This document shows positions 3,105 to 40,643 of a stretch of DNA of 64,000 nt, piece after piece. Source of the DNA: an uncultured Candidatus Binatia bacterium. Its GTDB lineage: Bacteria; Desulfobacterota; Binatia; UBA9968; JAJDTQ01. Location: NCBI GenBank assembly GCA_965214905.1, contig OZ243984.1, positions 3,504,628 through 3,568,627 on the forward strand, in the 5' to 3' direction. A model generated the notes under the pieces. It saw only the letters and a list, made by a program, of their open reading frames with translations. It did not search any database and was not told the DNA's origin. The position numbers and the translations under genes were made by a program. Numbering within the stretch: position 1 is the first letter of the stretch; every line of letters begins with the position of its first letter.

Positions 3105-4418
3105 ATGGACCCGACCTTTCTGGCGATCCTCAGCGTCTTTGTTCTGATCATTCTGCTTCTGTGCGGCCTTCACGTGGCCGTGTCACTGGGGCTGGTCGGG
3201 GTGTTGGGCTTCGTCATGATCACCGATAGTTGGTCCGCCGGGATCGGCCTGTTACGGACGACCCCGTACAAGGTCGTGGCCAACTTCACGTTCTTCGCCA
3301 TCCCCGTTTTCATTTTGATGGGGCAGTTCGCCAACTACGGCGGCTTGAGCGCGGACATCTACTCGGTGGTTCACAAGTGGCTGGGGCGGGTCCGGGGCGG
3401 CCTCGCCATGGCCACCACGGCGAGTTGCGCCGCCTTTGCCGCGGCCTGCGGCTCGAGCGTGGCCACCGCCGCCACCTTTACCCAGGTGGCCTTGCCGGAG
3501 ATGCTCAAGTACGGCTACGACAAACGCATCGCCACCGGCGCCATCGCGGCCTCCGGGACCCTGGGAGCGCTGATTCCTCCCAGCGGCCTCATGATCATCT
3601 ACGGCATCATCACCGAGCAGTCCATCGGCAAGCTGCTGATCGCCGGCTTCATTCCGGGGCTCCTCTCGGCCCTGATCTACATGGGCATGATCTCGTTCTG
3701 GGTCAGGCTCCGGCCCGAAATGGCGCCCATCATCGACGAGCGGCCGCCGTTGAGGGAGAAGCTCCTGTCCCTGTACCGGGTGTGGGGCATCGTCACCCTC
3801 TCCATCATCGTCATGGGCGCCATCTACCTCGGCATCGCCACCCCCACCGAGGCGGGCGCCTTCGGCGCCTTCGGCGCGTTCGTGATCATGATCGCCAAGG
3901 GCGCTTTCTCGCGCCAGAGGCTGCGGAACACCGTGCTCGATACCGCCACCTCCACCACGATGCTGTTCACCATCATCATCGGCGCCTACATCTTCAGCCG
4001 GTTCCTGGCCGTCACCAACGTCGGTCCGCAGTTGGCCGACTATCTGGTGAGTTCGGGCGCACCGCGGCATCTGATCCTGGCGGGGTTCCTGCTGCTCTAC
4101 GTGTTCCTGGGCATGTTCATGGACCCGGCCGCGATGATGGCCATCACCTTGCCCATCGTCTTCCCCATCGTCATCGAGATGGGCTTCAGCGGCATCTGGT
4201 TCGGCGTGCTGGTGATCAAGACCTCCGAGATCGGCCTCATCACCCCGCCGGTGGGAATGAACGTCTACACCGTGAACGCTGCGGCCCATGGCATGGTGCG
4301 CCTTGAGGATATCTTCAAGGGCATCCTGCCGTTCTTTCTCATGGACGTCCTGACCCTCGTGGTCCTGGTGGCCTTCCCGCAGATCTCCCTGTGGCTGCCG
4401 GACCGGATGCTGGGGTAG
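3105..4418 (+). CDS. dctM: TRAP transporter large permease, DctM family
   Basis: 437 aa polytopic membrane protein with the DctM-like GSSVATAATF and GALIPPS motifs. Its ATG is 8 bp after dctQ. Confidence 0.9.
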   Translation: MDPTFLAILSVFVLIILLLCGLHVAVSLGLVGVLGFVMITDSWSAGIGLLRTTPYKVVANFTFFAIPVFILMGQFANYGGLSADIYSVVHKWLGRVRGGLAMATTASCAAFAAACGSSVATAATFTQVALPEMLKYGYDKRIATGAIAASGTLGALIPPSGLMIIYGIITEQSIGKLLIAGFIPGLLSALIYMGMISFWVRLRPEMAPIIDERPPLREKLLSLYRVWGIVTLSIIVMGAIYLGIATPTEAGAFGAFGAFVIMIAKGAFSRQRLRNTVLDTATSTTMLFTIIIGAYIFSRFLAVTNVGPQLADYLVSSGAPRHLILAGFLLLYVFLGMFMDPAAMMAITLPIVFPIVIEMGFSGIWFGVLVIKTSEIGLITPPVGMNVYTVNAAAHGMVRLEDIFKGILPFFLMDVLTLVVLVAFPQISLWLPDRMLG

Positions 4419-4424
4419 GAATCA

Positions 4425-6704
4425 TCAGCGATTATCAATTGGCTCCGCGTCGATTTCGGAACTGCCCTGCGACAGGGCTTGAGAACCGACAAACTCGATG
4501 ATCTGCGGCAGTGTCACGGCGCCGATGCGCCGGGCCTCGCGCAACAAGAGCAGCGCGGCAACGGTGGCCTCGGCACTCGTCGCAACCTGTTGCAGGTTTT
4601 GCCGGACGGTTTGGGGCAGTGCGTCGCCGATGGCCTCCAGGAGATCGGCTTCGATTTGCTGCTCGACGACGCGCCCACGTTCGGTTTCGTCGGCGAGGGA
4701 CAGCGCTCTGCGCCATTTGTCGAGATGTCTGGATCGGATCGCCAGTAGATCGAGCCCCGGGTTACCCAACCGGGCGGCGCACTCCGCAACCATCGGGTCG
4801 AACCGATACGCTTCCCATCCAAGATCGATGCGGCCAATGAGGTCTGCAACGAGCCTCGGGCCGTCCTCCGGGTGGTGGAGCAGGTCGCAGGCTTCAATTG
4901 CGTCGATACCTGAAGGCTGCTCGGCGACGAAATACACACTCGCGTAAAACGAGGTCCGGGTCGGACATCCTATTGTGCTCCCGCAACTGCTTCAGCGCAT
5001 CGGCAAACTGCAGGTACGCAGGGCGATACGCTTCTCCGCGCGGTCCGTTCCGGTCGAGCATGAGCAGCAGGTCGAGCAGGAATGACCGTTCGGTGCTTCG
5101 ATCCAACCCGGGTCTGACGCTGCCGATGAGGTCAAGCAGCCGCTCGATTTCCTGGCTTGGGCTGAGACGCCGTCCGCAAACGATCTCTGCCTAGAGTTGT
5201 ATGCGTGGCGAAATCATATAGTTCGATCCTTCCTCGTCCTCTCGCCAACGGAACAGGTCGAGGTCGGCAAGGAGATGGCTGATTTGATCCTGATGCAGTC
5301 CGCCGGTCTGACCAAGCACCCGAAAAACGAGATTGACGGGTACCGGGCAATTCAGCCGTCCGGCCACCATGACATAGTCGATCAGCCGTCCCGCCGCGTC
5401 GAGGCCCAAAACTGCGAGCTTTTCATCGTCCTCGAATACCTGCGAGGTAGGGCTGGCAATGCCCAACTCAATCAACTGCTCCGCTATGCTGGATAGTCCG
5501 TTAGAGGGTCGCGGCACATGCCGTGCCCGATCCCGTACGACACTTTCGGCAGCTCTGGCTTCCGACGACACGCCGGCGGCCAGCCGCCCGCGCGCCACGG
5601 GTAACCTGCGATACAGCATGGCAAAGATGGAGTCACTGGTGTTCGGTCCATAGTGCGGCTCAACCTGGAAGTCGTCCCGTAGTTTCTCGAACGCGGCCAG
5701 ATCCAGGGACGAGACACGGGCTGGCGCCTCGACGAACCGGTCCGACCTGCCGATGCTCTTTCCTGTGCCCGACTGTCCGTGCAGGACGACGACATCGTCG
5801 GAGTCGGGTTGCCCGAGCCGCTTCAGTTTGTCATTCACTGTCCTCCAAAGGGTATCCTCGAACTCGCGTTCCACCGCGAACCCGCGCGATATCCCCTCTA
5901 CCAGCAATCTGAAGTTGCCAGGGGTACTGTGGAAGCGACGGAACGCATCGTACGCTTCGGAGTCGTCCATTGGCTCGGGCTCTTGCGTCCACCCGTCATC
6001 GACAATGGCGGCCGATGCTTCTACTCGAAGACGCGCAGGGCCGGTGTAATATCCAGCGTCGCGTTCCCGGCAAGCGACACCAAGCCCGGATCGTCCGGCG
6101 CAGCGGACCCCGCAACGTCGAGCACCCCGCGAAGTTCAAGCTGACGGATTGCGCTCGCGAGAGTTGCCGTAGTCGGAATGAGCAATTTTTGCCGGATCAT
6201 CTCATCGGCTATGCTTGAGTCCTCGACTTCGCCGGGATAGCCGAACCATAGAACCCTGGGGCCTGCTTGGCCGGATAGAGGCGCCAATAGGGAATTCGGC
6301 GGTATCCAATCCCCGTTCGGGTCGTAACCCGCTATGACCACCAAACCGCCCACCGTCGCCGTCTCCGCGATACGGTTAAGCAATTGCGTTGCGTGCAGGA
6401 TGAGGCGGCGCGTCAGATCGCTTTGCTTTCGAGGTGATCGCGCTTTCTCAATGGTTTCACTGGACTTTCCAAGGAGATAGTAGATTGGAGGTCTCGATCG
6501 ACTGCGCGGCACCCTCGCGTAGGTGTCTTTGGAGAGTACCGGCTCGGGTTGCCTACCGCGGGTCTCGAAACGTCTCGCAAACCGGGGGTCGATGGAGGAC
6601 GTGAACACCGCGCTCCAGGCAACCTCGAAGATGGTGGCGGCAGCGTCGGAGGGTACGCTTCGCTCAAACCGTTCGGAAAGCCACGTCATGTCGGATGCGC
6701 TCAA
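4425..6704 (-). pseudogene. Fragmented large NTPase gene read across three or more frames: ORFs 6704-6021, 5970-5191 and 5106-4425. The middle piece carries a Walker A motif (VVVLHGQSGTGKS). The N-terminal piece has possible SIR2_2-like motifs (VFTSSIDPRFARRFE, IYYLLGKSS). The whole looks like a decayed STAND/SIR2-type defence ATPase.
   Basis: Three consecutive same-strand ORFs are separated by stops and frame changes. Sequence after the GKS motif looks out of frame. GC is lower than in the flanks. Confidence 0.4.
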
Positions 6705-7016
6705 ACCTTGCTTGATCGCCGCACGCCACCCCGAATCGCGGTCCGCGCCTTCAATGCGGCGGAGGAGGGTGCCGAGTATTGCATCGTGCGCCGTATCGAG
6801 ACTGTTTGACTCACCGTGTCGTCCACCATGGAGTAACCAGCCGGAACCGGCTGAACGACGGTCCTGCCCCGTTTCCCGATTCTCGCCGGTGCGCGGCGTC
6901 CGAGAGTGTCAAAGGCGGCGCTTCCGCACATCCTGCTCCGTCCAGTCAGGTAGGTGAGCCGTCATCAACGCCTTGAACAGCTTGCCGTGCCGGGTCGAGA
7001 ATACCACGCTGGCCAA

Positions 7017-7380
7017 TCAGTAGGCGCTGCCGCGGTAGGTGTACGGCCTCGACGTGCCTTGGCCTGCGCTGACTACGATCACCTCACGGTTGCCATCCAC
7101 GCGGACCCGTTCGACCGTCGGAAACGCCGGAGGATCGATTTGCTGAAGCTCGGCGCTCAAGTGCTCAATGGTGCGCTCGCTGACCTGCTGCCCAACCGGG
7201 ACCCGTCCGGCGTCACCCCGAGCAGCACCTGTCCGCCGCGCTGATTCAGAAAGGCGCACACTGTCCTGGCCGCCTCGCGGCGCGCCCAGTGGTCTTTTTG
7301 AACTCCAGCGTTTCCGACTCGCCGGACGCGGCCAGCGCTACGATCTCGTCAAGCGTCAACATAGTGACCTCACATCTTCT
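7017..7380 (-). pseudogene. Remnant of an AlbA_2 (Schlafen-like, 'divergent AAA'/RecG-like) DNA-binding protein gene, frameshifted
   Basis: The reverse strand at 7380-7262 translates to MLTLDEIVALAASGESETLEFK..., the hallmark AlbA_2 N-terminus, then hits a stop. A second frame, 7259-7017, continues through ...VDGNREVIVVSAGQG. Confidence 0.4.
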
Positions 7381-7553
7381 GTAGTAGCTGCCGAGTTCAC
7401 CCCTTGCTTCTCGTCATGTCGGGCGCGGCCAATCGGCCGTCTGCTTGATCCTGCTTGATAAGCTGACGGATTGGTCATATTGTTAATCCCTTATCCGTGA
7501 CGTTCTGCCGTTTTTGCTCCCAGCTATGCCGGGTTAGTGTCGAGGAGTCGGTT

Positions 7554-7787
7554 ATGGTCATGATAAGCGTCCATGAAGCGAAGATGCATCTGTCCCGCCT
7601 TCTCGTGCAGGTCGAGGCCGGCGGGGAGGTTGTCATCGCACGCAACGGTAAGCCGGTGGCACGGCTCGTAAGGGTCCAAAAGCGTGGCAAGCGGCAATTC
7701 GGCTCATGGAAGGGACGGATAACGATCGACGACAGCTTCTTCGACCCGCTGCCGGAGGATGAGTTGAAGGCATGGGAAGGTGAATAG
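7554..7787 (+). CDS. Type II antitoxin, Phd/YefM family
   Basis: MVMISVHEAKMHLSRLLVQVEAGGEVVIARNGKPVARLV is the classic Phd/YefM fold signature. A VapC-like remnant follows immediately. Confidence 0.8.
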   Translation: MVMISVHEAKMHLSRLLVQVEAGGEVVIARNGKPVARLVRVQKRGKRQFGSWKGRITIDDSFFDPLPEDELKAWEGE

Positions 7788-7901
7788 CAGTTGCGGGCAC
7801 TGTTGGATGCTCATACTTTTCTTTGGTGGATCACAGATAGCAGCCGTCTGTCTGAGGCGGTGCGCCAGACGATTGCAGGTGCGCAACCAAGCCGAATTTG
7901 A
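7788..7901 (+). pseudogene. Truncated PIN-domain toxin (VapC) remnant. Only about 37 codons remain (…LLDAHTFLWWITDSSRLSEAVRQTIAGAQ…), ending at TGA.
   Basis: The frame that starts directly after the Phd stop encodes LLDAHTFLWW, the VapC N-terminal motif, but stops after 37 aa. No PIN continuation appears in any frame. Confidence 0.55.
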
Positions 7902-8009
7902 CACTTGGCGCGCGACACGTCATCCTTCCGTCAAAGGTTTCCCCGATGACAAGTGCTCCAGGTGAGCACTCTCAGAAGGAGTAGTTGGGGGGATCTTTTT
8001 TGGGACCAG

Positions 8010-8336
8010 CTACTCCCTCACGTGGTAGATGCGCTTTTGCATATCGCCGGTGATTACATCGACCACTCGATGGACGAGCGGTCGTAATTCCTGTACGCGC
8101 GTTCGCGACGCGATCATCACCACTACCGGAATCGGCAGATCGTCCAGGTTCTGCTGGTATTCAATGCCCTGATCCGCAGTGATGAATGCATCGAAATCAT
8201 GGGCTGCCGCCAGTTTCAGAAGATCGCCATTCGATCTGCCCGCCCATCCCATTTCCGGCACCGTGACCATCTCGAAGCGACCTGGGAAGTGCGTACGAAG
8301 GGGCCTCGGCATCGACTCGTCAAGAAGCAGCCTCAT
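8010..8336 (-). CDS. DUF5615 family PIN-like putative toxin
   Basis: MRLLLDESMP... N-terminus. It is paired with, and overlaps by 17 bp, the upstream DUF433 gene. Confidence 0.7.
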   Translation of the reverse strand: MRLLLDESMPRPLRTHFPGRFEMVTVPEMGWAGRSNGDLLKLAAAHDFDAFITADQGIEYQQNLDDLPIPVVVMIASRTRVQELRPLVHRVVDVITGDMQKRIYHVRE

Positions 8337-8544
8337 CCGACGTTCCGGTGAGTGAAGCCTTTGCGCGTTCAAGGACCTCGATGGCTTGGCTACGCGACAC
8401 CGTGGGATAGCTTTCGAGGAAGTCGTCAAGCCGGTCGCCCGCTTCCAGGTGCTCGATCAGGATACGTATGGGGACCCTGGTCCCAGGGAACACCGCCGTC
8501 CCGCCGAGAATGCCGAGTTCTTTGCTGATGCTCTTTTCCTTCAT
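8320..8544 (-). CDS. DUF433 domain protein (putative antitoxin partner of DUF5615)
   Basis: MKEKSISKELGILGGTAVFPGTRVPIRILIEHLEAGDRLDDFLESYP is DUF433-like. The RBS is GAGGTG. Confidence 0.7.
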   Translation of the reverse strand: MKEKSISKELGILGGTAVFPGTRVPIRILIEHLEAGDRLDDFLESYPTVSRSQAIEVLERAKASLTGTSDEAAS

Positions 8545-8629
8545 GGTTGCACCTCGGTTGGTTTCAGTCCCTGTGGCTATCTCTGCAAGCAATGGGTCTC
8601 ATCTTCTAAGCGCACTCAGTCTTGGCTGC

Positions 8630-8896
8630 CTAGTGACGCGCCCCGATCCTCTCATCAAACACGAGGCGATTTCGCATTCCCAGGATTTCCTGCCAAGGGA
8701 CTCCCGGCGCTTGTGTTCGAGAAGATTCGGTTACTTGAGCTGCTGCTTCGCCAGTAATCTCAATGTCTTTGACCAACGACAGAAGCAGTTGGCGGTCGGT
8801 CTCCAAGTCACCTCGTGCTCGATCACGGGCAAACAACACGGCCTCACGGGGGGCGTCGAGCATATGGCGCAGGCGGATTACGTTATCCTTGAACAT
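8630..8896 (-). CDS. HepT-like (DUF86) toxin, apparently truncated or degenerate
   Basis: ...VPWQEILGMRNRLVFDERIGARH* stops where HepT proteins normally continue (Rx4HxY then ...VW). The catalytic H and Y positions read F and E. It overlaps the MntA gene by 14 bp. Confidence 0.55.
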   Translation of the reverse strand: MFKDNVIRLRHMLDAPREAVLFARDRARGDLETDRQLLLSLVKDIEITGEAAAQVTESSRTQAPGVPWQEILGMRNRLVFDERIGARH

Positions 8897-9188
8897 ATTG
8901 CACTTCCGCCGCGTCCAGCACTTCTTGCCGGAAATAGTGGCTCAGGTCCTCGATCGTTCGCAGATCGACCTTGCGTCCCGAGAACAGGTCGAACAACTCC
9001 ATCTCCATGCCGGCAACGCCCAGTAGCCCAGGAATCCGGTTCGGCTCGAACTCGACGAGTACGTCTATATCGCTCTCAGGTCCAAAGTTCTCGCGCAACG
9101 CCGAGCCAAAGACGGCAAGGCGCTTGATCCCATGCTCTTGGCAGAATGCGGCAAGCGCGTCCTTAGCGATCGATACCTGTGGATTCAT
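8883..9188 (-). CDS. MntA-type nucleotidyltransferase antitoxin
   Basis: LAVFGSALRENFGPESDIDVLVEF is the minimal NTase GS..DxD motif. Confidence 0.8.
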   Translation of the reverse strand: MNPQVSIAKDALAAFCQEHGIKRLAVFGSALRENFGPESDIDVLVEFEPNRIPGLLGVAGMEMELFDLFSGRKVDLRTIEDLSHYFRQEVLDAAEVQYVQG

Positions 9189-9224
9189 TGCTCGTGATCC
9201 TCCATTTCGGCAGAATTCCCCATC

Positions 9225-9509
9225 CTAGCCAAAAATCTCGCACTTCAGTTCTTCGTAGACCGTCATTCCAGGTTTGATGAGCGGGGCCAGGGTGTTGCGC
9301 ATGAATGCTTTCGCGTCGTTTCCACATTTCGTAAGGCCTGGAATTTGTTTGCTCGCAAGGTAAATCTCGCCACTGGCTGGCTTCAGGTCGTCGGGGGCAG
9401 CATCGGTTCTACCGGCAAGTGGTTTTCTCTTCTTCTTCAGGAGGTCTTCAAGCTTGTCTGCCTTACCAACCGACTCGGCGAGCGCCGTTAGGACCTCGTC
9501 GCAGAACAA
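9225..9509 (-). CDS. Hypothetical small protein. It may be a frameshifted C-terminal continuation of the upstream ATPase/Toprim gene.
   Basis: It begins 21 bp inside the end of the 9488-10798 ORF, in another frame. No motif was recognised. Confidence 0.3.
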   Translation of the reverse strand: MFCDEVLTALAESVGKADKLEDLLKKKRKPLAGRTDAAPDDLKPASGEIYLASKQIPGLTKCGNDAKAFMRNTLAPLIKPGMTVYEELKCEIFG

Positions 9510-10798
9510 GTATTATAAGACTCCAGATTACGCCTTGACAAGACCCGAACTCCGCCTTGCATCATATCGGCGACCTGTTGGTCGGATTGGTCATCACGGT
9601 CAATAAGTCTCACAACCTCCGAACCTTTGATTAACAAGCCGATGGCGTACGCTATCCCACGGCTGTCATTGGCTACACCTGATGCGTTGCCTCCGGGGAC
9701 GAATTGAGTTTCCGGGAACTTGTCTTGGAAAATAACTTCATAAGAAGGTGCATCATGGGCGTAGTTCTGTCCAGCGTTCTTGTTCTTCGGCTCGCCTTCA
9801 CAGATGACTACTCGTTCCGGCGCGACCAGCGTGGCCAAGTCGTCAAGCGCTACATCATGAGCTCTGTTCCAGAACACTCGATCGGGAGTCACGGGCTCAA
9901 TGACCTGTGGCTCATCAAAGTCGAGCTCATCGAAGTCAAGAAATACAACACTTCCAGGGTGCTCGGATTCAATGTCCCGAGCCCGGCGCATCATGCCAAT
10001 GGAGTGAGTCGCCAGCATCAATTGGCAATTTTCCGGAATTAGGCCGTAGAGCACAGACAGAAGTTCGGCCTGAAGAGGAGCGTTCAGGTGGGATTCGGGC
10101 TCGTCGATGCAAAACAGCGTGTCGTCGTAAGCCCGTCGCGCGACAATCAGATCAAGTATCAGGTCGACCGCAGCCTTTTCGCCCCCGGATAGGTTCTTGA
10201 ACGAGAAGCCGTTGCTCGTTCCTTTCGTGAATCGAAAGGTCCCATCCCCCAGCGGATTCCCGAGACTATCGAGCTCAACGTCGGAGAACAGCTTGGAGAA
10301 AGCTGTCCTTATATCTCCAATGACCAACTCTCGGAATTCGTTCAAAGTCACCAAGCCGTCTTCGGGGGCGAATATATCCTCAAGCGCTTGGCTGGCCAGT
10401 CGCTGAAAGTTTTTGGCTACAGCTCCATCGTTGTCGATCATGCGCGGAACTCGAATATCGTCCAATGGATCGCCAACTCGCTGAAGGTTCTGAATCTGGA
10501 ACCCTGGATCGTTCCTGTATGCTGATCTTACAAAGAGGGTCTTCTTTGGAGTTGGGGTAGGGATAGGATTGTGGAAATCTGTTTGGACATCATTACGCAA
10601 TCGGTCGCGAAATGGTGATCCGGTTTTGGCGTGATAATCCATTTCCCACGTTCGGTGTCTTTGGGACGTCCAGTTATGCCATGTATGAAGAGCATCAAGA
10701 AAGGATGACTTGCCGCATCCATTGGGTCCGGCGAGCATGATAAGGCGTGCCGTTTCCGGGATGCCTTGAATGGTCAGATGGGTGATTGCCTCATGCAC
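9488..10798 (-). CDS. OLD-family (overcoming lysogenization defect) ABC-type ATPase with a C-terminal Toprim-like domain. It is a PARIS/Gabija-GajA/DUF4276-like defence nuclease candidate.
   Basis: Walker A (LAGPNGCGKSSFLDAL), Walker B with downstream H (LFCIDEPESHLN...LMLATHS), and a C-terminal VVICEGEP...RLIDRDDQSD (Toprim E and DxD). The start is uncertain: GTG at 10798 is possible, but the ORF runs in-frame into the hsdS remnant. GC is lower, about 50%. Confidence 0.65.
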   Translation of the reverse strand: MHEAITHLTIQGIPETARLIMLAGPNGCGKSSFLDALHTWHNWTSQRHRTWEMDYHAKTGSPFRDRLRNDVQTDFHNPIPTPTPKKTLFVRSAYRNDPGFQIQNLQRVGDPLDDIRVPRMIDNDGAVAKNFQRLASQALEDIFAPEDGLVTLNEFRELVIGDIRTAFSKLFSDVELDSLGNPLGDGTFRFTKGTSNGFSFKNLSGGEKAAVDLILDLIVARRAYDDTLFCIDEPESHLNAPLQAELLSVLYGLIPENCQLMLATHSIGMMRRARDIESEHPGSVVFLDFDELDFDEPQVIEPVTPDRVFWNRAHDVALDDLATLVAPERVVICEGEPKNKNAGQNYAHDAPSYEVIFQDKFPETQFVPGGNASGVANDSRGIAYAIGLLIKGSEVVRLIDRDDQSDQQVADMMQGGVRVLSRRNLESYNTCSATRS

Positions 10799-11264
10799 AG
10801 GCCAAAGGACGCCAGCAAACTGGCGCTGTTCATCCAACGCGAAGTCGGGCGTTTCGAAGTCGCGTATGTGTGCCCATGAGGTCCTTGGATGCTGGACGCC
10901 AGTGGTTCCCGCTACGGCATAATCGAGGAAGGCAGGAGAATGCACGACTGTAACCAGGAAACGCGGGTCAATGCCTGCCTTCGCGCGCAGTACGAGCAAC
11001 TCCGTCGTACAGACGCCCGCCTCGTCAGCAAGGATCGCTTTTGTCGAGATAGGGACGGAGCTTTCCGTACAGCACGTCACCTGGTTGGAACGCGGACGCG
11101 GCGCTCCGCATGTCCGACGCTCGCCCGCCACCCGCGCGCGCAAGCCGCCCCGGAGCAAGATGTTCAAGGCCAAGGTAGAGAGAGTCCGGCCGCGCGCCCG
11201 GCTTGACCGGCTCCGCGATGAGATTGCACAGGTCCGAAAGGCGAGTGGCCTTACCATTCGTCAT
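10799..11264 (-). pseudogene. hsdS: Type I restriction-modification specificity subunit (HsdS) remnant. It has the N-terminal TRD plus the central conserved region, is frameshifted, and lacks the second TRD.
   Basis: Frame A (11264-11025) reads LSDLCNLIAEP...GDVLYGKLRPYLDKS. Frame B continues as ISTKAILADEAGVCTTELLVLRAK...LDEQRQFAGVLWPV. Both are HsdS hallmarks. Confidence 0.6.
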
Positions 11265-11287
11265 GCCATTACGCAGCCTTTGGCGTA

Positions 11288-11707
11288 CTATAACCGTTTG
11301 GTTCTGCTCAATCTTGAAATCGTCCGTGCCCGCAGTCCCTTGAGCCGTACCGCAGGCAGCCTTTTGAGCGTCTGGCTGCCCGGATCCACCTCTATGCCGA
11401 CCGACTCCAAAGCCGTTACACCCAGCAGCGGCTCGGTGTCCGCGTCTCCAAATAGGATGGTGGCCCCTACGAACTCCCCCATGAACTCTACCTGGGCGAC
11501 CGTGATGTCCATTCGGAGTTCACTACCGTCGGCAAGTTCGTAGACTCGCTGTCCTTTAGGCGCAAGGCCTATGGATTCCAGGCATTGCCTTGGCACGAGG
11601 CAATCGGTCGCGCCTGTGTCAACCAGGAACAGCCCTTCCCAAGTCCTGTCCGGCTCGGCCGGGTTGCGAATCAGAGCGGTCACGTGTGTTGCGCCCATTT
11701 CCGTCAC
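11288..11707 (-). CDS. Retropepsin-like (clan AA) aspartyl protease family protein
   Basis: [13 protein letters not shown] active-site motif, ...[15 protein letters not shown], and about 139 aa. This matches bacterial retropepsin-like proteases. Confidence 0.7.
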
Positions 11708-11726
11708 TTCTCCTTTCTTTTATTCA

Positions 11727-12180
11727 CTATAGTCGCGCCAACATTTTCGCCAACGTTGCATCGACCTTGCGGACCTCATCGTCAAGGCGCTGCATTGCAG
11801 CGATGATCCCGGAGATCGGACGCTGGGTCACGGCGTCGGTTTGTCCCACCCATCGGCTCGGGCTCAGGTTGTCGTCCGCGTCCTCCGTTTGCTCCCGCGT
11901 GATGACGGCGACCTCGCCCTCCACCGGCTCGCCCTTGGCGAACGCCGCTGCCAGCGGGGAGGTAGTCGTAGGCGCGGCCCAGGAAGTCGGGCTGCACGTC
12001 GGCGAGGCCGAGCCGGTAGCGTGGGTCGGAGAAGGTCTCCACCACCGCGGCGAGCCGGGCCGGGTTGACGTCGCGCTCGCCGTTGCGCTCGGACGCGAAG
12101 TCCACCAGGTCGATGATGCCGAGTCTGGCTCGGATAGCCCGTAGTGTGGCCGCTACCGAACGAGAACGAGATTCGGTCAT
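11727..12180 (-). pseudogene. hsdM: Fragment(s) of a type I RM methyltransferase subunit (HsdM), frameshifted and truncated
   Basis: ...[34 protein letters not shown]... matches the HsdM N-domain motif (D.LG.AYEYLL). It then degenerates into an Arg/Gly-rich out-of-frame tail. Confidence 0.4.
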
Positions 12181-12303
12181 ATCTTGCTTATGGCAGATAT
12201 GACTGAATAAAGCAGTCGACAGTGGGGTCGTGCGTCAGTTTGAAATCCCGTGCACTTACCCTGCACTCCGACCCCTCCCCCGGAGGGAGACGGGCTCTGC
12301 GGT

Positions 12304-13047
12304 TCAGCGGATCACTTCGTTGTTCTCGATGATGTCGAGCACCCGGTCTTCGAACTCGGCCATTTCCGCCCGGGTGGCGTTGGTGGGGGTTTCCATGTCG
12401 GCGAGGACCCGTCCGGGTTTTCCCAGGATCACTAGCCGCGAGCCGATCTCCAGGGCTTCGTGAATGTTGTGGGTGATGAGCAGGCAGGTCTTTCTGCTTT
12501 CCGTCACGAGTTCCAGGAAGACTTCCCGCAAGCGTCGGGCGGTGGACTGGTCCAGGTGGCCGAAGGCTTCGTCGGCAAAGAAGATCTCGGGCGAAAGGCA
12601 GAACGCCCGGGCCATGCCCACCCGCTGGCGCATGCCGCCCGACAGCTCGTGGGGATAGGCGTCCTCGAAGCCCTGGAGCTCCAGCTTGTGCAGCCATTCC
12701 AGGGCGATGTCGTTCTGTTCCTTGTCGCCGTACCCGAGGATCTCCAGGCCCACGCGGGCGTTCTCCAGTGCGGTGCGCCACGGCAGCAGGCGGTCGGTCT
12801 GGAAGATGACGCCCAGCTTGGAGCGGAAGTAGTCGAACTCCTTGTGGGGATCGTGTCCCAGGAGCGTGACTGATCCGGAAGTAGGCGGGTCGAGGCCCAG
12901 CAGCAGGTTGAAGGTGGTGGACTTGCCGCACCCGGTCTTGCCGACGATGGCGACGATGTCCCCGCTGCCGACCTCCAGGTTCAGACCGTCCACTGCGGTG
13001 AACCGGTCGCCGTCCACCGAGGTGAAGACCATGCTTACGTCTCGCAT
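12304..13047 (-). CDS. ABC transporter ATP-binding protein (NitT/TauT aliphatic sulfonate/nitrate family)
   Basis: Walker A (GKTGCGKST), signature (LSGGMRQRVGMARA) and Walker B (IFFADEAFGHLD). The track ORF 12304-13854 is an artefactual run-on through the permease gene. Confidence 0.85.
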   Translation of the reverse strand: MRDVSMVFTSVDGDRFTAVDGLNLEVGSGDIVAIVGKTGCGKSTTFNLLLGLDPPTSGSVTLLGHDPHKEFDYFRSKLGVIFQTDRLLPWRTALENARVGLEILGYGDKEQNDIALEWLHKLELQGFEDAYPHELSGGMRQRVGMARAFCLSPEIFFADEAFGHLDQSTARRLREVFLELVTESRKTCLLITHNIHEALEIGSRLVILGKPGRVLADMETPTNATRAEMAEFEDRVLDIIENNEVIR

Positions 13048-13067
13048 CCGGATGACGGCATCAGCGC

Positions 13068-13907
13068 TCACGTGGCCATGCCTCCCTGTTTCGCCGGACG
13101 CCAGCGCAGCAGCCTGTTTTCCAGCGTGAGAATGACGAGTTGGGTGATGAGCAGGAAGGTGACCAGCACCAAGGTCCAGGCGATGGCCTTGGGCATCTCG
13201 AACAGCTCCTGCGCCAGCAGCAGCTTGTTGCCCACGCCCCGTGTGGCGCCCACCAGTTCGGCGACGATGACCACGCGGGCCGCGAGCCCGAGATTCACTT
13301 TCCATGCCGTAAGCACCGCGGGGATCATCCCCGGCAGGATCAGTTTGGTGAACAGCTGCTTTCTCGTGGGGCGCATGGCCCGCAGCATATCCAGGTATTC
13401 CTTGGAGATGCTCTTGATGCCGTCGTGGATGATGAGGGCATAGTTGGGCAGGCAGCCGGCCAGCAGGATGAATGCGATGCGGGTCTCCACGTGGCTGAAC
13501 CAGATGATGGCGAAGACCACCCACGAGAGCGCCGGTATGCCCATGATGAAGTGGAGCACCGGCAGGGTGTGCTTCTCCGCCGTTTCCGTGAAGCCCATGA
13601 ACACGCCCAGGATGGTGCCGCTGATGAACGCCAGGACGAGCCCCAGGAAGATCCTCCCCATGGTGGTGAACGCGTCTCCCAACAGGGTCAGGCTCCCGAC
13701 GATCTCGATAAAGGCGGAAATGATGACGCCGACGCTGGGAACCAGGTAGGGCGGCAGAAAGTAGGACGTGATCTGCCAAGCCACCAGGATCACGGCAAAG
13801 GAGATGATCGGCTCCTTCCTGGTGGCCATGAGGCCCGCGAGGCGTGAATACCATGCCTCGCGGGCCACGGGCGGCGTTGCCGTCGTGGGGGTTGTCTCGG
13901 ATTCCAT
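13068..13907 (-). CDS. ABC transporter permease (NitT/TauT family, SsuC/TauC-like)
   Basis: 279 aa with six hydrophobic segments, and lies between the SBP and ATPase genes. Confidence 0.8.
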   Translation of the reverse strand: MESETTPTTATPPVAREAWYSRLAGLMATRKEPIISFAVILVAWQITSYFLPPYLVPSVGVIISAFIEIVGSLTLLGDAFTTMGRIFLGLVLAFISGTILGVFMGFTETAEKHTLPVLHFIMGIPALSWVVFAIIWFSHVETRIAFILLAGCLPNYALIIHDGIKSISKEYLDMLRAMRPTRKQLFTKLILPGMIPAVLTAWKVNLGLAARVVIVAELVGATRGVGNKLLLAQELFEMPKAIAWTLVLVTFLLITQLVILTLENRLLRWRPAKQGGMAT

Positions 13908-13928
13908 GCCAGCGAACGAGGCGCCGGT

Positions 13929-14894
13929 CTATCGGACGCGGCCCCGGTAGATGATGCCGTCGTCCGGCATATTCTTCATATAGCCGCTCTCGATGCCGGC
14001 CTGGAACAGCGCCTTGATGTTCTCCTCGATCTCCGCTGCCGGGACCACGTCCAGGGGATAGCGGGCCGCGCTCAGCGCCATCAGGAACGCCTGCTTGGGT
14101 ACGCCGGCCGCCTTCTCGATGATCGTGGCCGCCTCGTCATGGTGGGTCGGCAACCACGTGGCGAGCTCGGCAAAGGCCGCGTAGATCTTCGGGATCAGCT
14201 CCTTGTTGGCGTTGATCCAGCCCTCGTGCGCAGCCACGCCCAGAAAGCCCCGCTGGGGCGCTCCGTGGATGGCTTCCCACTGGTGAAAGTACTCGATCAT
14301 CTTGAACTTGCCGGGGTTGTCCACCAGAATCTTGGAGTAGTTCGGTTCCCAGAAGTGAACGGCGTCGGCCCGTTTGGCCATCAGGTAGGTGGCCAGGCCG
14401 GGCACGCTGGTGGACTGGATTGCAACCTTGCCGAGGTCGACGCCTGCCTTGTGGGCGAAGTAGCGGAACATGGCGTAGTTCGTCGTCACCGTAAACGCCG
14501 CCAGAGTCTTGCCCTCGAGGTCGTTGATGCTGTTGACCTCGGGATTCGACGTCAGCAGTGCGCCGTGCCCGTTCAAGACGTTGAACAGATAAACCGATTT
14601 CACGCCCTTGAGCCGGCGATTGGCCTCCGACAAGAGCGCTGAGGCGATGGTGAGTTGGTCCCTGCCGGTGGCGAAGTCCGTGTTGGCCGCGCGTCCCGGC
14701 TTGAACGCCCACTCGAGATCGATGCCGTGTTTCTTGTCGAAGCCGTTGGCCTCGATCAGCGAAGCCGTCGTATGACCGAAAGACGGCTTGTCGAAGGACG
14801 AGATCCGTACCTTGGTCAGCCCCTGAGCCAGGACCGGCGCGGCGCCGGCCAGGGCGACCGCGGCTATCAGGAAACTCGAAATGAGTCGAAACAT
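13929..14894 (-). CDS. ABC transporter substrate-binding protein (NMT1/SsuA/TauA-like)
   Basis: Signal peptide (MFRLISSFLIAAVALAGAAPVLA), about 320 aa, and it is the first gene of the ABC operon. Confidence 0.8.
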   Translation of the reverse strand: MFRLISSFLIAAVALAGAAPVLAQGLTKVRISSFDKPSFGHTTASLIEANGFDKKHGIDLEWAFKPGRAANTDFATGRDQLTIASALLSEANRRLKGVKSVYLFNVLNGHGALLTSNPEVNSINDLEGKTLAAFTVTTNYAMFRYFAHKAGVDLGKVAIQSTSVPGLATYLMAKRADAVHFWEPNYSKILVDNPGKFKMIEYFHQWEAIHGAPQRGFLGVAAHEGWINANKELIPKIYAAFAELATWLPTHHDEAATIIEKAAGVPKQAFLMALSAARYPLDVVPAAEIEENIKALFQAGIESGYMKNMPDDGIIYRGRVR

Positions 14895-15119
14895 GATTTG
14901 CCCTCCTTGTTACCGGGTTCTCAACGGAATTCGCTCGATGGATTCGAGGCTTCCTCCGTCAGAACCCCGGAACCTAGAAATTTTTGGTCTCCGTGTCAAC
15001 GGAAAACCGGACGGACCGACACGTTGCCAGCCTTGAACTGCTCTCTTGGTTGGGCTACATCCGGAGGGGTCGAACTCTTGAGCGATCGACGGGTTTGGCC
15101 CAACACACGGAGGTGAAAC

Positions 15120-16271
15120 ATGTACCTGGTTGATGCCGACGGACACGTGGAGGAAAGCGAAACCACATTCAGCGACAAATACCTGGATCCGGCATTCCGA
15201 GCCCAGCGGCCGCGGGTGGTGGCCATCGACCGGATGGTCTACTGGATGATCGAAGAGCAGATGTACCCGCGCCGTGTCGGCCGCGGCGCTCACAATCTGG
15301 GAACTCCGGCCAGCTACAAAGGCGAGAAGACGCCCCACGCGCAAAAGAAGTCCGACACCATCGGCAGCATGGAGATCCACGGCGTCACGGAGCGGATCGA
15401 GGCCATGGACAAGGAAGGGATCTCGCTGCAGGTCCTCTATCCCACGCTGTTCCTCGCCTATCCGCTGGCTGCGAACCCCGCGCTCGTGACCGCCATGGGC
15501 ACCGCCTACAACCGCTTCCTGGGCGACCAGATCGGCGCGCACGAGCGGCTCAAGTGGGCCGCGGTGGTGAATCTCGATGACGTGGAGGGGGCGGTGAAGC
15601 AGGTCCACGAGGCCCACAGCCTCGGGGCCGTGGCCGTCATGGTGCTGGGCACCATCGGCGACCGGATGCTCGACGACCCGGCTTTCCTGGCGTTCTACGA
15701 GGCTCTGGTCGAGAGGGATCTGACGCTGGCGATACACGTGGGTTGGGCGTGTCCGGCCCTGAACGGCCTCTTTACCCACATCTATCCGTCCTCGGTGAAC
15801 GCCTTCCTCATGCCGCTCATGCTGGGCTTCTCGGCCATGATCAACAGCGGCCTGCTGGACCGTTTCCCCACCCTGCGGGTGGGATTCCTGGAGGCCGGCT
15901 GCCAGTGGGTCCATTTCATGATCGACCGTCTGGATCACCGCTTCGGCCATTCAGGGAATTTTCTCGCCGAAATCCTTCCGGACACGGTTCCCAAGGCCAA
16001 GCTGGCGCCCATGGAATACATCCGGCAGGGGAATCTCTACCTGAGCGCGGAGGTGGAGGACACGCTGTTGCCCCAGGTGGTGGAGCTGGTGGGCGAGGGG
16101 CAGGTGGTCTACGGCTCGGATATGCCCCACGGCGACCGCGAAGTGCTGTCCAGCGACCACCTGAAGCAGCGGGGAGACCTCAGCGAGGCCGCCAAGACCA
16201 GGATCCTGCAGGACAACGGCGCCAGGCTTTACAACCTGGACATCAGCGACGCAGTGAGGAAGGCTTCCTGA
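15120..16271 (+). CDS. amidohydrolase family protein (amidohydrolase_2)
   Basis: MYLVDADGHVEESETTF N-terminus and a C-terminal ...YGSDMPHGD motif. The RBS is GGAGGTG. Confidence 0.85.
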   Translation: MYLVDADGHVEESETTFSDKYLDPAFRAQRPRVVAIDRMVYWMIEEQMYPRRVGRGAHNLGTPASYKGEKTPHAQKKSDTIGSMEIHGVTERIEAMDKEGISLQVLYPTLFLAYPLAANPALVTAMGTAYNRFLGDQIGAHERLKWAAVVNLDDVEGAVKQVHEAHSLGAVAVMVLGTIGDRMLDDPAFLAFYEALVERDLTLAIHVGWACPALNGLFTHIYPSSVNAFLMPLMLGFSAMINSGLLDRFPTLRVGFLEAGCQWVHFMIDRLDHRFGHSGNFLAEILPDTVPKAKLAPMEYIRQGNLYLSAEVEDTLLPQVVELVGEGQVVYGSDMPHGDREVLSSDHLKQRGDLSEAAKTRILQDNGARLYNLDISDAVRKAS

Positions 16272-16304
16272 CGAGCCGTGCCGGCCCGCAAGGCGATGCG
16301 GACA

Positions 16305-16332
16305 CGGAGCGGGTTTGGAACCCGCCCGTACA
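16305..16332. repeat. GGGTTTGGAACCCGCCCGTAC hairpin repeat copy
   Basis: cggagcgggtttggaacccgcccgtacact. Confidence 0.5.
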
Positions 16333-16358
16333 CTCGGGTCTTTCCGTGGCTAAGGCTC

Positions 16359-16622
16359 TTAATGGGCATCCGGTTGGCCGACGATGACTTCCCGCGAGCG
16401 GACGGTCACGAGGCGGTCGAGGCGGCGCAGCATGATCTGTGCCGCCTCGACCGAGATGGCTTGCCCGAAGATGTGGTAACGTTCTCCGTCCAACCACTGG
16501 TTGTTGGCCCAGAAGGCGAACTCGTGTGGGGTAGGGGTGTGGCCGAGATCCCTGGCGCAACGCCGCACTACAAAGCCGAGCACGACTTTGCGGCCCTTGC
16601 CGTTGTCGACGCCGGACGACAT
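16359..16622 (-). CDS. Hypothetical protein (87 aa). It has good GC3 codon bias, but no RBS or homology was recognised.
   Basis: The ORF lies in the 570-bp gap between the amidohydrolase and cyclase genes and is flanked by two GGGTTTGAAACCCGCCC hairpin repeats. Confidence 0.3.
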   Translation of the reverse strand: MSSGVDNGKGRKVVLGFVVRRCARDLGHTPTPHEFAFWANNQWLDGERYHIFGQAISVEAAQIMLRRLDRLVTVRSREVIVGQPDAH

Positions 16623-16775
16623 ACTCGGGATTCTTAGGTGATTCCAGCGAGAGGTTCAACCCGATCACGGTAACCTGTGTCGCCGGAAGACGGGTGTCGC
16701 GTCCTGAACAGACTGTGGAGAAATCTGCGGGTCCTTTTCGCCGTCGGCTGCGCCTCGCGTGGCATCGGCCACAGG

Positions 16776-16796
16776 GTCGGGTTTGAAACCCGCCCG
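16776..16796. repeat. GGGTTTGAAACCCGCCC hairpin repeat copy
   Basis: ggtcgggtttgaaacccgcccgcg. Confidence 0.5.
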
Positions 16797-16843
16797 CGCC
16801 CGCCGCCGGGCGTCAGCGGAATACAGGCTCGAAGGAGGAGGCT

Positions 16844-17821
16844 TTGGCGACTCGAAGACGTCCGAAACTGACCATGGAGCGCATCCGGGAGGCGGCCGAG
16901 CGGCTGCGCAACTGGGGCCGGTGGGGCGAGGACGACGAGGTCGGCACGCTCAACTTTACCACCCCCGAGGACATCGTCGCCGCTGCGCAGCTCGTGCGCA
17001 AGGGCCGGGTGTTCTCCCTGGCCCTCGGTTTCGATGCCCAAGGCCCGCAGGGAGGCAAGAGCAACTACCCGGCCATGGGCCGCTTCAATCCCATCCACCT
17101 CATGCTTCGCACCGGGACGGACGCCTACGCGGGGGTGCTCGACCACCGGGGCATCCGGGGTGCTGACGACGTGATCATCATGCCGCTTCAGGCCGGCACT
17201 CAATGGGACGGGCTGGCGCACATCTTCTATGAAGACCGAATGTACAACGGCTACGACTGCCGGCTGGTGACCACCGGCGGCGCCGCCAAAAACGGCATCG
17301 AGAAGACCCGTGACAAGATGGTCGGGCGTGGAGTGTTGCTGGACGTGGCCCGGACCAAGGGCTCGGACTGGTTGAAGGACGGCTACGCCATCACCAACCG
17401 CGATCTCGACCGCACCCTGAAGGCCCAGGACGTGGAGGTGGGCCGGGGCGACTATCTGCTGGTGCGGACCGGGCAGATGAAGGCCAAGCTGGACGCCGGG
17501 TCCTGGGACGGCTATCCCGGCGGAGACGCCCCGGGGCTGGGCTTCGAAACCCTGGACTGGCTCCACACCCGGGAGGTGGCCGCGGTGGCCACCGACACCT
17601 GGGGAGTGGAGGTCCGGCCCAACCAGACCCGGGAGGCCAACCAGCCGTGGCACTGGGTCAGCATTCCGAACATGGGTCTCACCGTGGGCGAGATCTTCCA
17701 TCTGGAAGAGCTCGCCGAGGACTGCGCCGAGGACGGGCGTTACGAGTTCATGTTCGTGGCCCCCGCGCTGCCGGTCACCGGGGCGGTGGGTTCCCCCACC
17801 AATCCCTTGGCGATCAAGTGA
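16844..17821 (+). CDS. Cyclase family protein (kynurenine formamidase-like, PF04199)
   Basis: Typical cyclase-family composition and length. TTG at 16844 has a strong AAGGAGGAGG RBS; the alternative ATG is at 16874. Confidence 0.8.
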   Translation: MATRRRPKLTMERIREAAERLRNWGRWGEDDEVGTLNFTTPEDIVAAAQLVRKGRVFSLALGFDAQGPQGGKSNYPAMGRFNPIHLMLRTGTDAYAGVLDHRGIRGADDVIIMPLQAGTQWDGLAHIFYEDRMYNGYDCRLVTTGGAAKNGIEKTRDKMVGRGVLLDVARTKGSDWLKDGYAITNRDLDRTLKAQDVEVGRGDYLLVRTGQMKAKLDAGSWDGYPGGDAPGLGFETLDWLHTREVAAVATDTWGVEVRPNQTREANQPWHWVSIPNMGLTVGEIFHLEELAEDCAEDGRYEFMFVAPALPVTGAVGSPTNPLAIK

Positions 17822-17835
17822 TCGGAGCAAGCAAA

Positions 17836-17868
17836 ACGCACGGGCGGGTTTGAAACCCGCCCCTACGG
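17836..17868. repeat. GCACGGGCGGGTTTGAAACCCGCCCCTACGGG hairpin repeat copy in the cyclase-creatininase spacer
   Basis: Direct read. Confidence 0.55.
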
Positions 17869-17879
17869 GAGGAGACGAA

Positions 17880-18695
17880 ATGGCGGCGCAACGGGGCTCG
17901 GTATGGCTTCAGGAACTGACCTGGGAGGATGTCGCGGCCTATCTCGAAGATTCCGACATCATCATCTGTCCGGTGGGCAGCACGGAAGAGCACGGGCCGG
18001 CCGGCCCGCTCGGACTTGACTGCCTCATCGCCATTGCCCTGGCGGAAGACGTGGCCCGCGCCACGGGGACGCTGTGCACGCCGCCGCTGTGGTTCGGCGA
18101 CTCGCCGCATCACCTGGGTTTTCCGGGAACCATCTCGCTTCGTACCGAGACCCTGATGGCGGTGATCCAGGATATGAGCCGAAGTCTGGCCAAACACGGG
18201 TTCCGCAAGATTCTCATCATCAACGGACACAAGGGCGCCAACCTCCCCGGCCTGCTGGCGGCTACCAAGAACTTGCGTGAGTACGAGATGCCCGAGGTCT
18301 TCTTCGCGGTCATCGACCCGGTGAAAATCGCCAAGAAGATCGCCAACGAGATCAAGGAAGCGAGAGAGCATCACAGCGGGGAGCTGGAGATCTCGGAGTG
18401 CTGGTACAAGTATCCCCACCTGGTCAAGCAAGAGAAGCTGACCACGTCGCAGGTCGACTTCGAGGAGAATTTCTCGCCATGGTCACACGGAGACCTCTTC
18501 TCCGCGCCGCACGAGGTGATCGATATTCCCTGGACCAGCACGGAACAGCGCCGTATCGTGCCTAGCGGCTCCTTCAGTCCTTCCATCAAGGCCTCGCCCG
18601 AGAAAGGCAAGGCGTACCACGACTACATGGTCGATCAGATCGTGCAATTCATCGGGTGGCTGCGGGATTACGAAGGACCCGTGGCCCAGGTTTGA
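17880..18695 (+). CDS. Creatininase family protein (creatinine amidohydrolase-like)
   Basis: ...IICPVGSTEEHGP...GFPGTISL...INGHKGA motifs. GGGAGGAG RBS before the ATG at 17880. Confidence 0.85.
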   Translation: MAAQRGSVWLQELTWEDVAAYLEDSDIIICPVGSTEEHGPAGPLGLDCLIAIALAEDVARATGTLCTPPLWFGDSPHHLGFPGTISLRTETLMAVIQDMSRSLAKHGFRKILIINGHKGANLPGLLAATKNLREYEMPEVFFAVIDPVKIAKKIANEIKEAREHHSGELEISECWYKYPHLVKQEKLTTSQVDFEENFSPWSHGDLFSAPHEVIDIPWTSTEQRRIVPSGSFSPSIKASPEKGKAYHDYMVDQIVQFIGWLRDYEGPVAQV

Positions 18696-18706
18696 CGCGC
18701 GTGGAC

Positions 18707-24445: not shown

Positions 24446-24651
24446 ACCGTTGGTTCCGTTTATGGGCGGTTTCGCGACGCATGTAGTGGCGCGCGCCGCA
24501 AACACGCCGATGTTACAAAGTGTCAAGTACCTAGCAGACTTGGGCGGCAACAAGCAACGCCAGAACGTCCAACGACCTGTTTCCACACGGCGGGAGCGGG
24601 TCGGAAGCCCCCTCGCGCGGGCGTTCCGCGTGACCGGCCAGGACCTTCCCA

Positions 24652-36579: not shown

Positions 36580-36819
36580 ATGGCGAGAGGACCTTCCGGT
36601 CGGATAGTCGTGGAAGTGGATCCAGATCTCAAAAGGGAGTTGTACGTCGCGCTGGCTTGTCACGGAATGACGTTGAAGGACTGGTTGGTTGGAGAAGCAC
36701 GGACACTGATAACAACGGGCCGTCAGTTGCCTCTGTTTGGCTCTGATGAAAGCCGGGCAATCCATGAGCCGGATCCTGTCAACCGCTCGGAAACGGGCGA
36801 TTCCGAGGAAGAAACATGA
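36580..36819 (+). CDS. Ribbon-helix-helix (CopG/Arc-like) DNA-binding protein. It is a putative regulator of the downstream methyltransferase operon.
   Basis: RIVVEVDPDLKRELYVALACHGMTLKDWLVGEARTLI has a beta-alpha-alpha pattern. Its stop overlaps the next ATG (ATGA). Confidence 0.5.
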   Translation: MARGPSGRIVVEVDPDLKRELYVALACHGMTLKDWLVGEARTLITTGRQLPLFGSDESRAIHEPDPVNRSETGDSEEET

Positions 36820-39565: not shown

Positions 39566-39579
39566 CGGGCGAACACGCG

Positions 39580-40635: not shown

Positions 40636-40643
40636 TCCGGATG

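Follow-up and report, generated by a model that had tools for sequence, protein, structure and literature searches.

The DNA analysed here, referred to as the window, is a stretch of 64,000 nucleotides (nt) from an uncultured Candidatus Binatia bacterium (contig OZ243984.1, positions 3,504,628 to 3,568,627 of the forward strand). In its left-hand part, a 7.9-kb island (4419–12303) is inserted between the stop codons of two convergent genes, dctM and the ATPase gene of an ABC transporter. A listing of open reading frames (ORFs) combined with family scans shows that the island is packed with defence and toxin–antitoxin (TA) genes, most of them fragmentary (Table 1), and bears out in this respect the initial annotation of the interval, which was made from the sequence alone. 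Five genes of 74–139 amino acids (aa) are left whole: Phd, DUF433, DUF5615, MntA and an aspartyl protease. The initial annotation was right in taking Phd, MntA and DUF433, all of full length, as intact, and it missed the full-length DUF5615 gene and the likely stub of a YgjP-like metallopeptidase gene. The longest unassigned stretch within the island is about 135 nt.

Table 1. Features of the island and of the genes that flank it, in window coordinates. L001, L014 and L082 are reference sequences introduced in the text.
Feature	Coordinates	Strand	State and evidence
dctM	3105–4418	+	Left flank of the island
nSTAND5 partner remnant	4425–4937	−	C-terminal ~158 aa left, homologous part 4428–4901; intact form 299–314 aa
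nSTAND5 STAND-NTPase pseudogene	4933–6806	−	blastn/tblastn against L001 and L014; intact form 1162 aa in L014
YgjP-like metallopeptidase, C-terminal stub (~33 aa)	6909–7016	−	tblastn with L082 YgjP
AlbA_2 (Schlafen-type) fragment	7017–7362	−	Three frames, two frameshifts; ends at a stop abutting the YgjP stub
Phd/YefM antitoxin, full length (77 aa; longest ORF from 7497)	7554–7787	+	PF02604, E 2e-10
VapC (PIN) N-terminal stub, 36 aa and stop	7791–7901	+	tblastn, plasmid VapC genes
DUF5615 PIN-like gene, full length (108 aa)	8010–8336	−	PF18480 covers 1–100/110
DUF433 gene, full length (74 aa from ATG; longest ORF to 8592)	8320–8544	−	PF04255, E 4e-13, 1–53/56
HepT (DUF86), 3' truncated	8630–8896	−	PF01934 covers 4–92/120; alignment with Microcystis HepT
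MntA nucleotidyltransferase antitoxin, full length (101 aa)	8883–9188	−	PF01909, E 4e-12; PADLOC PDC-S09, E 1e-23
ATPase-Toprim, out-of-frame C-terminal ~95 aa	9225–9512 (ORF 9225–9509)	−	L082 residues 437–531 align; frame differs from body
ATPase-Toprim body	9515–10775	−	About residues 14–437 of 539; OLD-like/merged-PARIS-like; AAA_21, AAA_15, SMC_N
hsdS remnant	10776–11264	−	First target recognition domain (TRD1) and start of central conserved region; PADLOC Specificity_I on both pieces
Retropepsin-like aspartyl protease gene, apparently intact (139 aa)	11288–11707	−	PF13975, E 4e-8; PF13650
hsdM remnants	11727–12186	−	Two frames; tblastn with L082 HsdM, PADLOC MTase_I matches
ABC-transporter ATPase gene	stop at 12304	−	Right flank of the island

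The dctM/ABC junction as a variable hotspot

A scan with the DctM protein, taking one genome per species, gave 24 related loci from Candidatus Binatia and related metagenome-assembled genomes (MAGs), with DctM identities of 90–98%. In about 20 of the 24 species, the equivalents of window positions ~4418 and ~12300–12314 are joined across only 25–1200 bp, and the 7.9-kb stretch is therefore an insert. Empty sites of 25–160 bp occur in about 12 species, so that occupied and empty forms of the same site stand side by side, which is one mark of a mobile genomic island. No tRNA, terminal or att repeats, integrase, transposase or Rfam element was found for the window's island.

The cargo of the site differs between Binatia species. 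At L014 the site holds only the nSTAND5 gene pair, in intact form. At L004 it holds another type I restriction–modification (R-M) system along with genes of the Fic, NTase/HEPN and TIR kinds, at L020 an NTP_transf_8 gene, at L016 a Uma2 nuclease, and at L010, L022 and L024 a small membrane protein. The dctM/ABC junction is thus a variable hotspot shared by many Binatia species. Part of the L004 cargo (11596–18831) likewise looks fused or frameshifted: its hsdM is intact, Fic is split over two ORFs, and an 855-aa ORF joins NTase, hsdS-TRD and DUF559 domains and is followed by a TIR protein.

The composition of the island is foreign to its surroundings. The G+C content is 0.50–0.55 around 9250–10750 compared with 0.62–0.65 in the flanks, and the G+C content at third codon positions (GC3) of the island ORFs is 0.57–0.79 compared with mostly 0.78–0.93 in the rest of the window. 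Crude ORF tiling of the ~56 kb outside the island yields mostly long ORFs (typically 200–1185 aa) separated by small gaps, and the breakage is therefore local to the island rather than a property of the assembly.

Decay of the nSTAND5 gene pair

The part of the island next to dctM consists of the remains of two genes for which intact relatives exist. L001, a metagenome contig obtained by an exact-protein look-up with DctM and 96% identical to the window through dctQM, carries intact genes of 299 and >1050 aa downstream of dctM, and the same pair is intact in L014 (314 and 1162 aa). The large protein matches the Pfam family nSTAND_NTPase5 (PF25199), with 34.4 bits in L001 (cut-off 34) and 31.8 bits in L014; the naming of the nSTAND families follows Aravind and colleagues (PMC8195603). 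Neither protein of the system matches any PADLOC model, and the partner remnant in the window matches no Pfam or PADLOC family. A SIR2-like effector at the N-terminus of nSTAND5, suspected from motifs, was rejected when Pfam, PADLOC and PDB sequence searches returned nothing of the kind, and an AlphaFold model of the N-terminal domain (pLDDT, the predicted local distance difference test, of 64) gave no Foldseek match better than E = 1. The intact genes are under purifying selection, with a ratio of non-synonymous to synonymous divergence (omega) of 0.16 between L001 and L014.

In the window the large gene is broken into ORFs 4894–5106, 5191–5970 and 6021–6704. The initial annotation described an NTPase split over three or more frames; the fragmentation into three ORFs stands, but the pieces occupy two reading frames with one internal stop, and the ORF at 4425–4937 belongs to the partner gene. 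Five lesions can be read against the intact relatives. The start and ~26 N-terminal residues are lost, a GC dinucleotide is inserted near 6030, a clean 255-bp in-frame deletion at ~5751 takes away the NTPase core just after Walker A, a TAG stop lies at 5197–5199, and a 1.68-kb deletion at ~4902–4919 has removed the C-terminal ~430 aa and, from the partner gene, the initial ~150 residues. The remaining NTPase pieces have no Pfam match, the nSTAND5 core after Walker A being deleted. What is left of the partner shares 97% amino acid identity with residues 142–299 in L001 and 70% with residues 154–313 in L014.

The nSTAND5 sequence of the window is 92.5–98% identical to that of L001 at the nucleotide level. 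The inactivation is recent, because the window copy has diverged from L001 by only a few percent. With an intact allele so close, and with the codon usage of the island still foreign, the notion of a long-resident island, put forward in the initial annotation, fails for the nSTAND5 half. Synonymous divergence (dS) between the nSTAND5 genes of the window (4933–6806) and L014 (12797–16285) is 1.1–1.7, whereas that of the adjacent dctM is 0.35, three to five times less. The gap hints at allele exchange at the hotspot, or else at codon bias that strongly damps the dS of dctM.

When the N-terminal domain was searched against 5.8 billion proteins, only 26 matched, one of which is the window's own 222-aa fragment. 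The other 25 homologues are all ≤ 431 aa long, compared with 1162 aa for the intact protein, and many have frameshift-like tails. In L085 the pair is split by three insertions of DDE-transposase insertion sequences (IS) and a frameshift, and in L086 nSTAND5 carries at least four frameshifts. In P0125, nSTAND5 residues 1–265 are fused to partner residues 155–293, and this fusion must therefore stem from a large deletion of independent origin. The window, L085 and P0125 thus represent at least three structurally unambiguous and independent inactivations of nSTAND5. A single nSTAND5 gene in L085 (1077–9108) holds two equal DDE transposase genes of 565 aa and one of 460 aa, and IS elements are very active in this lineage.

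Remnants of a probable type I restriction–modification operon and its passengers

The contig with the closest homologue of the island's ATPase, L082, carries an intact operon with the order hsdM-hsdS-ATPase-(two small ORFs)-hsdR-ygjP, which we used as a reference for the rest of the island.

The R-M genes recognised in the initial annotation are as damaged as it described them. The hsdM gene is reduced to two pieces in two frames, equivalent to residues 221–296 and 548–633 of L082 HsdM; its HTH/HsdM_N start (the first 220 residues) and the whole N6_Mtase catalytic domain are deleted (no PF02384 match), and the gene is cut exactly at the island edge. In hsdS, a short run of A near 11035 is one nucleotide too long, which causes a +1 frameshift, after which the reading continues in frame into the ATPase; the second target recognition domain (TRD2), the C-terminal conserved region and the gene's own stop are missing. 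We considered a phase-variable or programmed frameshift and rejected it, since the run is merely AAAA and TRD2 and the stop are missing anyway; a functional half-size HsdS is ruled out by the frameshift and by the read-through into the ATPase. The window has no tblastn match to L082 HsdR at E ≤ 1e-3. At the other end of the right-hand part, residues 77–99 of L082 YgjP match window positions 6989–6921 (tblastn E 3e-7), ygjP being the last gene of the operon in L082. The YgjP stub is joined in frame, across a stop, to the AlbA_2 fragment, which ends at domain position 107. This fragment, also noted in the initial annotation, matches PF04326 with E 6e-4 as a raw piece and with E 1.5e-17 over positions 1–107/118 once its two frameshifts are conceptually repaired (114 aa). 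The aspartyl protease gene sits between the hsdM and hsdS remnants with spacers of 19 and 23 nt, and has no counterpart there in L082.

The ATPase gene was at first annotated as an intact member of the OLD family, and this part of the annotation has to be given up. Homologues are 530–540 aa long; the window copy has lost its start together with about the first 13–17 codons, and a 5-bp insertion relative to L082 at ~9512 shifts the last ~95 residues out of frame. The 589-aa ORF at 9488–11257 is a chimera that begins with hsdS sequence and continues as the ABC ATPase-Toprim protein, with the junction near 10775. Identity to the L082 ATPase is 82% by tblastn and 84% in the homologue search. The Walker A motif GPNGCGKS is present, AAA_21 is matched with E 2e-16, and PADLOC gives an AriA/AriAB match. 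In the Toprim-like region, E343/E345 and D409/D411 are invariant in 30 homologues, and the window copy has CEGE and DRDD; Pfam Toprim, Toprim_Old and DUF4435 were not matched. Among the PADLOC models, merged PARIS AriAB fits the intact homologue best, with partial cover (266–538 of 694), and the best matches of the homologue's AlphaFold model (pLDDT 69) are the retron-Eco8 effector and Gabija GajA, with low TM-scores (0.25–0.3). On these models and motifs, assignment to an OLD-family or merged-PARIS-like group seems reasonable. PARIS is a sensor of anti-restriction proteins (PMC11464382), a role with which the place of the ATPase gene between hsdS and hsdR in L082 would, by analogy, agree. The possibility that the ATPase is an obligate component of type I R-M systems was rejected because its homologues stand alone in 2 of 3 contexts, and the guard gene is therefore itself a mobile passenger. 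Directly upstream of the R-M operon in L082 (234–4204) lie genes for a Hen1 methyltransferase and for Pnkp (kinase-phosphatase-ligase), which look like a bacterial RNA-repair pair, a curious neighbourhood if the ATPase-Toprim protein is a tRNA nuclease like AriB or PrrC.

A frameshift that consists of one extra A in an A-run, in sequence that comes from a MAG, might suggest that mistakes in sequencing or assembly account for the broken genes and that the island is really intact. We give this next to no credence. Measured against intact homologues, most of the lesions are losses of whole genes or deletions that range from 255 bp to >1.6 kb; the other indels (the GC dinucleotide and the 5-bp insertion) lie outside homopolymers; one lesion is a substitution to TAG; and the long ORFs of the ~56-kb flanks speak against a general error problem. 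Related MAGs of this kind were assembled from PacBio HiFi reads (PMC12648040), and together with the relatives of the window this suggests that its source is likewise HiFi-derived and comes from a sponge-associated organism.

The remaining genes of the right-hand part form three TA-like pairs. Over its full length, Phd is 44% identical to a plasmid-borne Phd next to a VapC. The VapC stub beside it has tblastn matches in 138 plasmid records and, among the matches listed, mostly to annotated VapC genes downstream of Phd; residues 1–32 of ~125 align and nothing further is found in any frame, so that no PIN domain with its set of acidic catalytic residues is left. MntA aligns end to end and has its GS...DxD motif. 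The homology of HepT stops after GMRNRLV, within the Rx4HxY motif, of which the R is kept while H, Y and ~36 further residues are gone; a sequence search of the PDB with HepT gave no match. Both truncations agree with the initial annotation. In the third pair both genes are of full length and adjacent, overlapping by 17 nt. DUF5615 is the usual partner of DUF433, and homologues of the DUF5615 protein (108–109 aa) cover 100% of it at 65–75% identity. We presume that DUF5615 is the toxin partner of DUF433 in a putative TA pair.

Two toxins and no antitoxin have been lost from the three pairs, and the initial annotation saw in this a selective loss of toxin and effector halves. In its strong form, this explanation has positive selection retain the antitoxins, for example as anti-addiction modules or regulators, and negative selection remove the toxins and effectors. 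Phd and MntA are indeed intact beside the stubs of their toxins, hsdR is absent, and the nSTAND5 system has been lost repeatedly. Toxin-only pseudogenisation is also common in other bacteria: in a study of type II TA erosion in Photorhabdus (Belot et al., Mol Biol Evol 2026), the toxin alone was affected in 185 cases, both genes in 186 and the antitoxin alone in 8, and toxin-first erosion is already documented as a general pattern (PMC13617665). We nevertheless consider the explanation distinctly unlikely for this island. With three pairs only there is no statistical case for selective toxin loss from the island alone; DUF5615 is intact; the destruction extends to hsdM, which is the protective half of the R-M system, and to the ATPase; and the intact genes are the smallest targets. 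Furthermore, Phd-VapC is read on the plus strand and MntA-HepT on the minus strand, so that the two operons converge and the toxins, each the distal gene of its operon, face each other, with the DUF433-DUF5615 cassette (7902–8660) lying exactly between their broken 3' ends. Because both toxin genes are the 3' genes facing one cassette, a single replacement or insertion, or else two adjacent deletions, would suffice to remove both toxin ends and spare the antitoxins, and the gene layout explains the truncation of VapC and HepT no less well than selection.

Erosion of the island and comparison with known systems

We put the probability at roughly 80% that the island was acquired horizontally, lies in a variable hotspot, is eroding, and was built from two former units, the nSTAND5 pair and an R-M operon with nested passengers. 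Unit 1 (4425–6806) is a former two-gene nSTAND5 conflict system which, given five independent lesions, would certainly be dead. Unit 2 (6909–12186) would be a former type I R-M operon of the order hsdM-hsdS-[ABC ATPase-Toprim guard]-hsdR-ygjP, into which the aspartyl protease, the AlbA_2 protein and the MntA-HepT, DUF433-DUF5615 and Phd-VapC modules would have been nested as passengers. Its damage comprises the loss of hsdR, of the catalytic domain of hsdM and of TRD2 of hsdS, the cutting of the ATPase-Toprim gene at both ends, and the reduction of AlbA_2 and YgjP to stubs. The many separate modules of the initial annotation probably reduce in this way to two former systems, much of the island apparently deriving from the R-M operon with its nested genes. 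Deletions would have done most of this erosion, besides a few small indels and a single nonsense mutation. By the known viability rule that no toxin can persist once its antitoxin is gone, a toxin or restriction subunit has to be lost no later than its antidote. The island probably contains no functional defence system: R, M and half of S are missing from the R-M system, the ATPase-Toprim gene is broken at either end, and the nSTAND5 core is lost. Relaxed or negative selection, as proposed in the initial annotation, is a reasonable reading, the decay being real and confined to the island and nSTAND5 having been wrecked independently in L085, P0125 and L086.

Several observations weigh against this interpretation. 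The indels of 1–5 bp were read from the assembly alone and not from reads, and the frameshifts of L086 could be long-read errors, for which reason L086 was given less weight. The window branch of nSTAND5 shows a trend towards relaxed selection, and its excess of non-synonymous changes is not significant (27 non-synonymous and 15 synonymous compared with 21 and 22; Fisher p = 0.19). The Pfam match of the YgjP stub to PF01863 has an E-value of only 0.058, so that support for the stub is moderate to weak. The ancestral R-M operon is modelled on a single relative, L082, with 82–84% identity in the ATPase, and the other ATPase homologues are stand-alone genes. Finally, no close relative with the right-hand (R-M/TA) half was found, and exact-protein look-ups with the ABC permease, MntA, the aspartyl protease, P0001 and P0147 gave no sister-strain contig for it. 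That half may therefore have decayed in place or have come in as damaged sequence.

It is conceivable that the right-hand half arrived as an already degraded composite fragment and has not changed since, in which case no R-M or TA gene would have decayed in place. The lack of a relative with an intact version at the site fits this idea, as do the foreign codon usage throughout the island, the cut of hsdM exactly at the island edge and the high window–L014 dS of nSTAND5 compared with dctM (1.1–1.7 and 0.35), which suggests exchange at the hotspot. We regard it as unlikely, since the nSTAND5 unit next to it can be shown to have decayed in place once it had split from L001 and the transfer of so many separate lesions at once is unparsimonious. 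Such an arrival is compatible with an eroding two-unit island as far as part of the damage is concerned.

An eroding island of two former units leaves the current understanding of defence islands unchanged and offers a well-resolved example of the death of one in a little-studied phylum. Most of the damage is done by deletions, no restriction or toxin gene outlasts its antidote, the small genes persist longest, and an apparently selective loss of toxins can arise simply from operon layout. The intact two-gene nSTAND5 system of the relatives is uncharacterised and can be tested. We also speculate, with the odds rather against us, that the repeated inactivation of nSTAND5, both at a recombinase-free dctM/ABC hotspot in probably sponge-associated Binatia and elsewhere, reflects active selection against abortive-infection immunity and not neglect. 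If true, selection against immunity of the nSTAND5 (NLR-like) type would be confined to some symbiont lineages.

Three other regions of the window were noted in passing. In a second block of foreign codon usage (36816–40665, GC3 ~0.61), two DNA methyltransferase genes (N6_N4_Mtase, D12 class) look intact and are accompanied by a convergent ORF of 361 aa that has no match in Pfam; the block may be an intact R-M system. A 1141-aa ORF at 21227–24652 contains tandem units of ~150 bp; BLAST against relatives gives many register-shifted matches at 21400–22000 within it, and the number of units probably varies between species. The longest ORF of the flanking ABC ATPase gene (516 aa, 12304–13854) overlaps the permease gene (13068–13907), and its true start is internal, because the ATPase domain begins only at residue ~289.

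Compared with known systems, the site resembles the defence islands and integration hotspots found between core genes in its conserved flanks, species-variable cargo, empty sites and foreign composition, and differs from them in that the window has no integrase, tRNA, att repeats or transposase to mark it. The nSTAND5 protein resembles Avs and the nSTAND families (PF25199), which are NLR-like defence proteins of the STAND class, in that the STAND P-loop NTPase of its intact orthologue (~1160 aa) lies centrally, between an N-terminal domain and a long C-terminal region. It is unlike them in matching no PADLOC model, in giving no fold match for its N-terminal domain, in having an obligate 300-aa partner with no family match, and in belonging to a tiny, lineage-restricted family of 26 database proteins.

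As in OLD-family nucleases and merged PARIS AriAB (PMC11464382), the ATPase-Toprim gene encodes an AAA_15/21-type ABC ATPase and, after it, a Toprim-like region in which ExE and DxD are invariant, whereas the window copy is incomplete, the AriAB model is only partly covered and the OLD class is not assigned. The position of this PARIS/OLD-like gene in the type I R-M operon of L082, between hsdS and hsdR, echoes the guard arrangement of the PrrC anticodon nuclease in the EcoprrI type Ic R-M locus (PMC1484252); by this analogy, the order hsdS-[ATPase-nuclease]-hsdR is what one would expect if the gene were a guard that responds to anti-restriction factors. In contrast to PrrC, the nuclease part in L082 and the window is Toprim-like and not an anticodon nuclease (ACNase) domain, and in the window the gene is truncated and frameshifted and its R-M host destroyed.

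The TA genes are closest to the eroded chromosomal type II TA loci described in Photorhabdus (PMC13617665), with which they share a spot of high turnover, a pseudogenised toxin beside an intact antitoxin (Phd-VapC and MntA-HepT) and loss by deletion. Those loci were mostly found apart from defence systems, whereas the modules in the window adjoin or lie inside them; one pair in the window is still whole, and the convergent layout covers both toxin losses.

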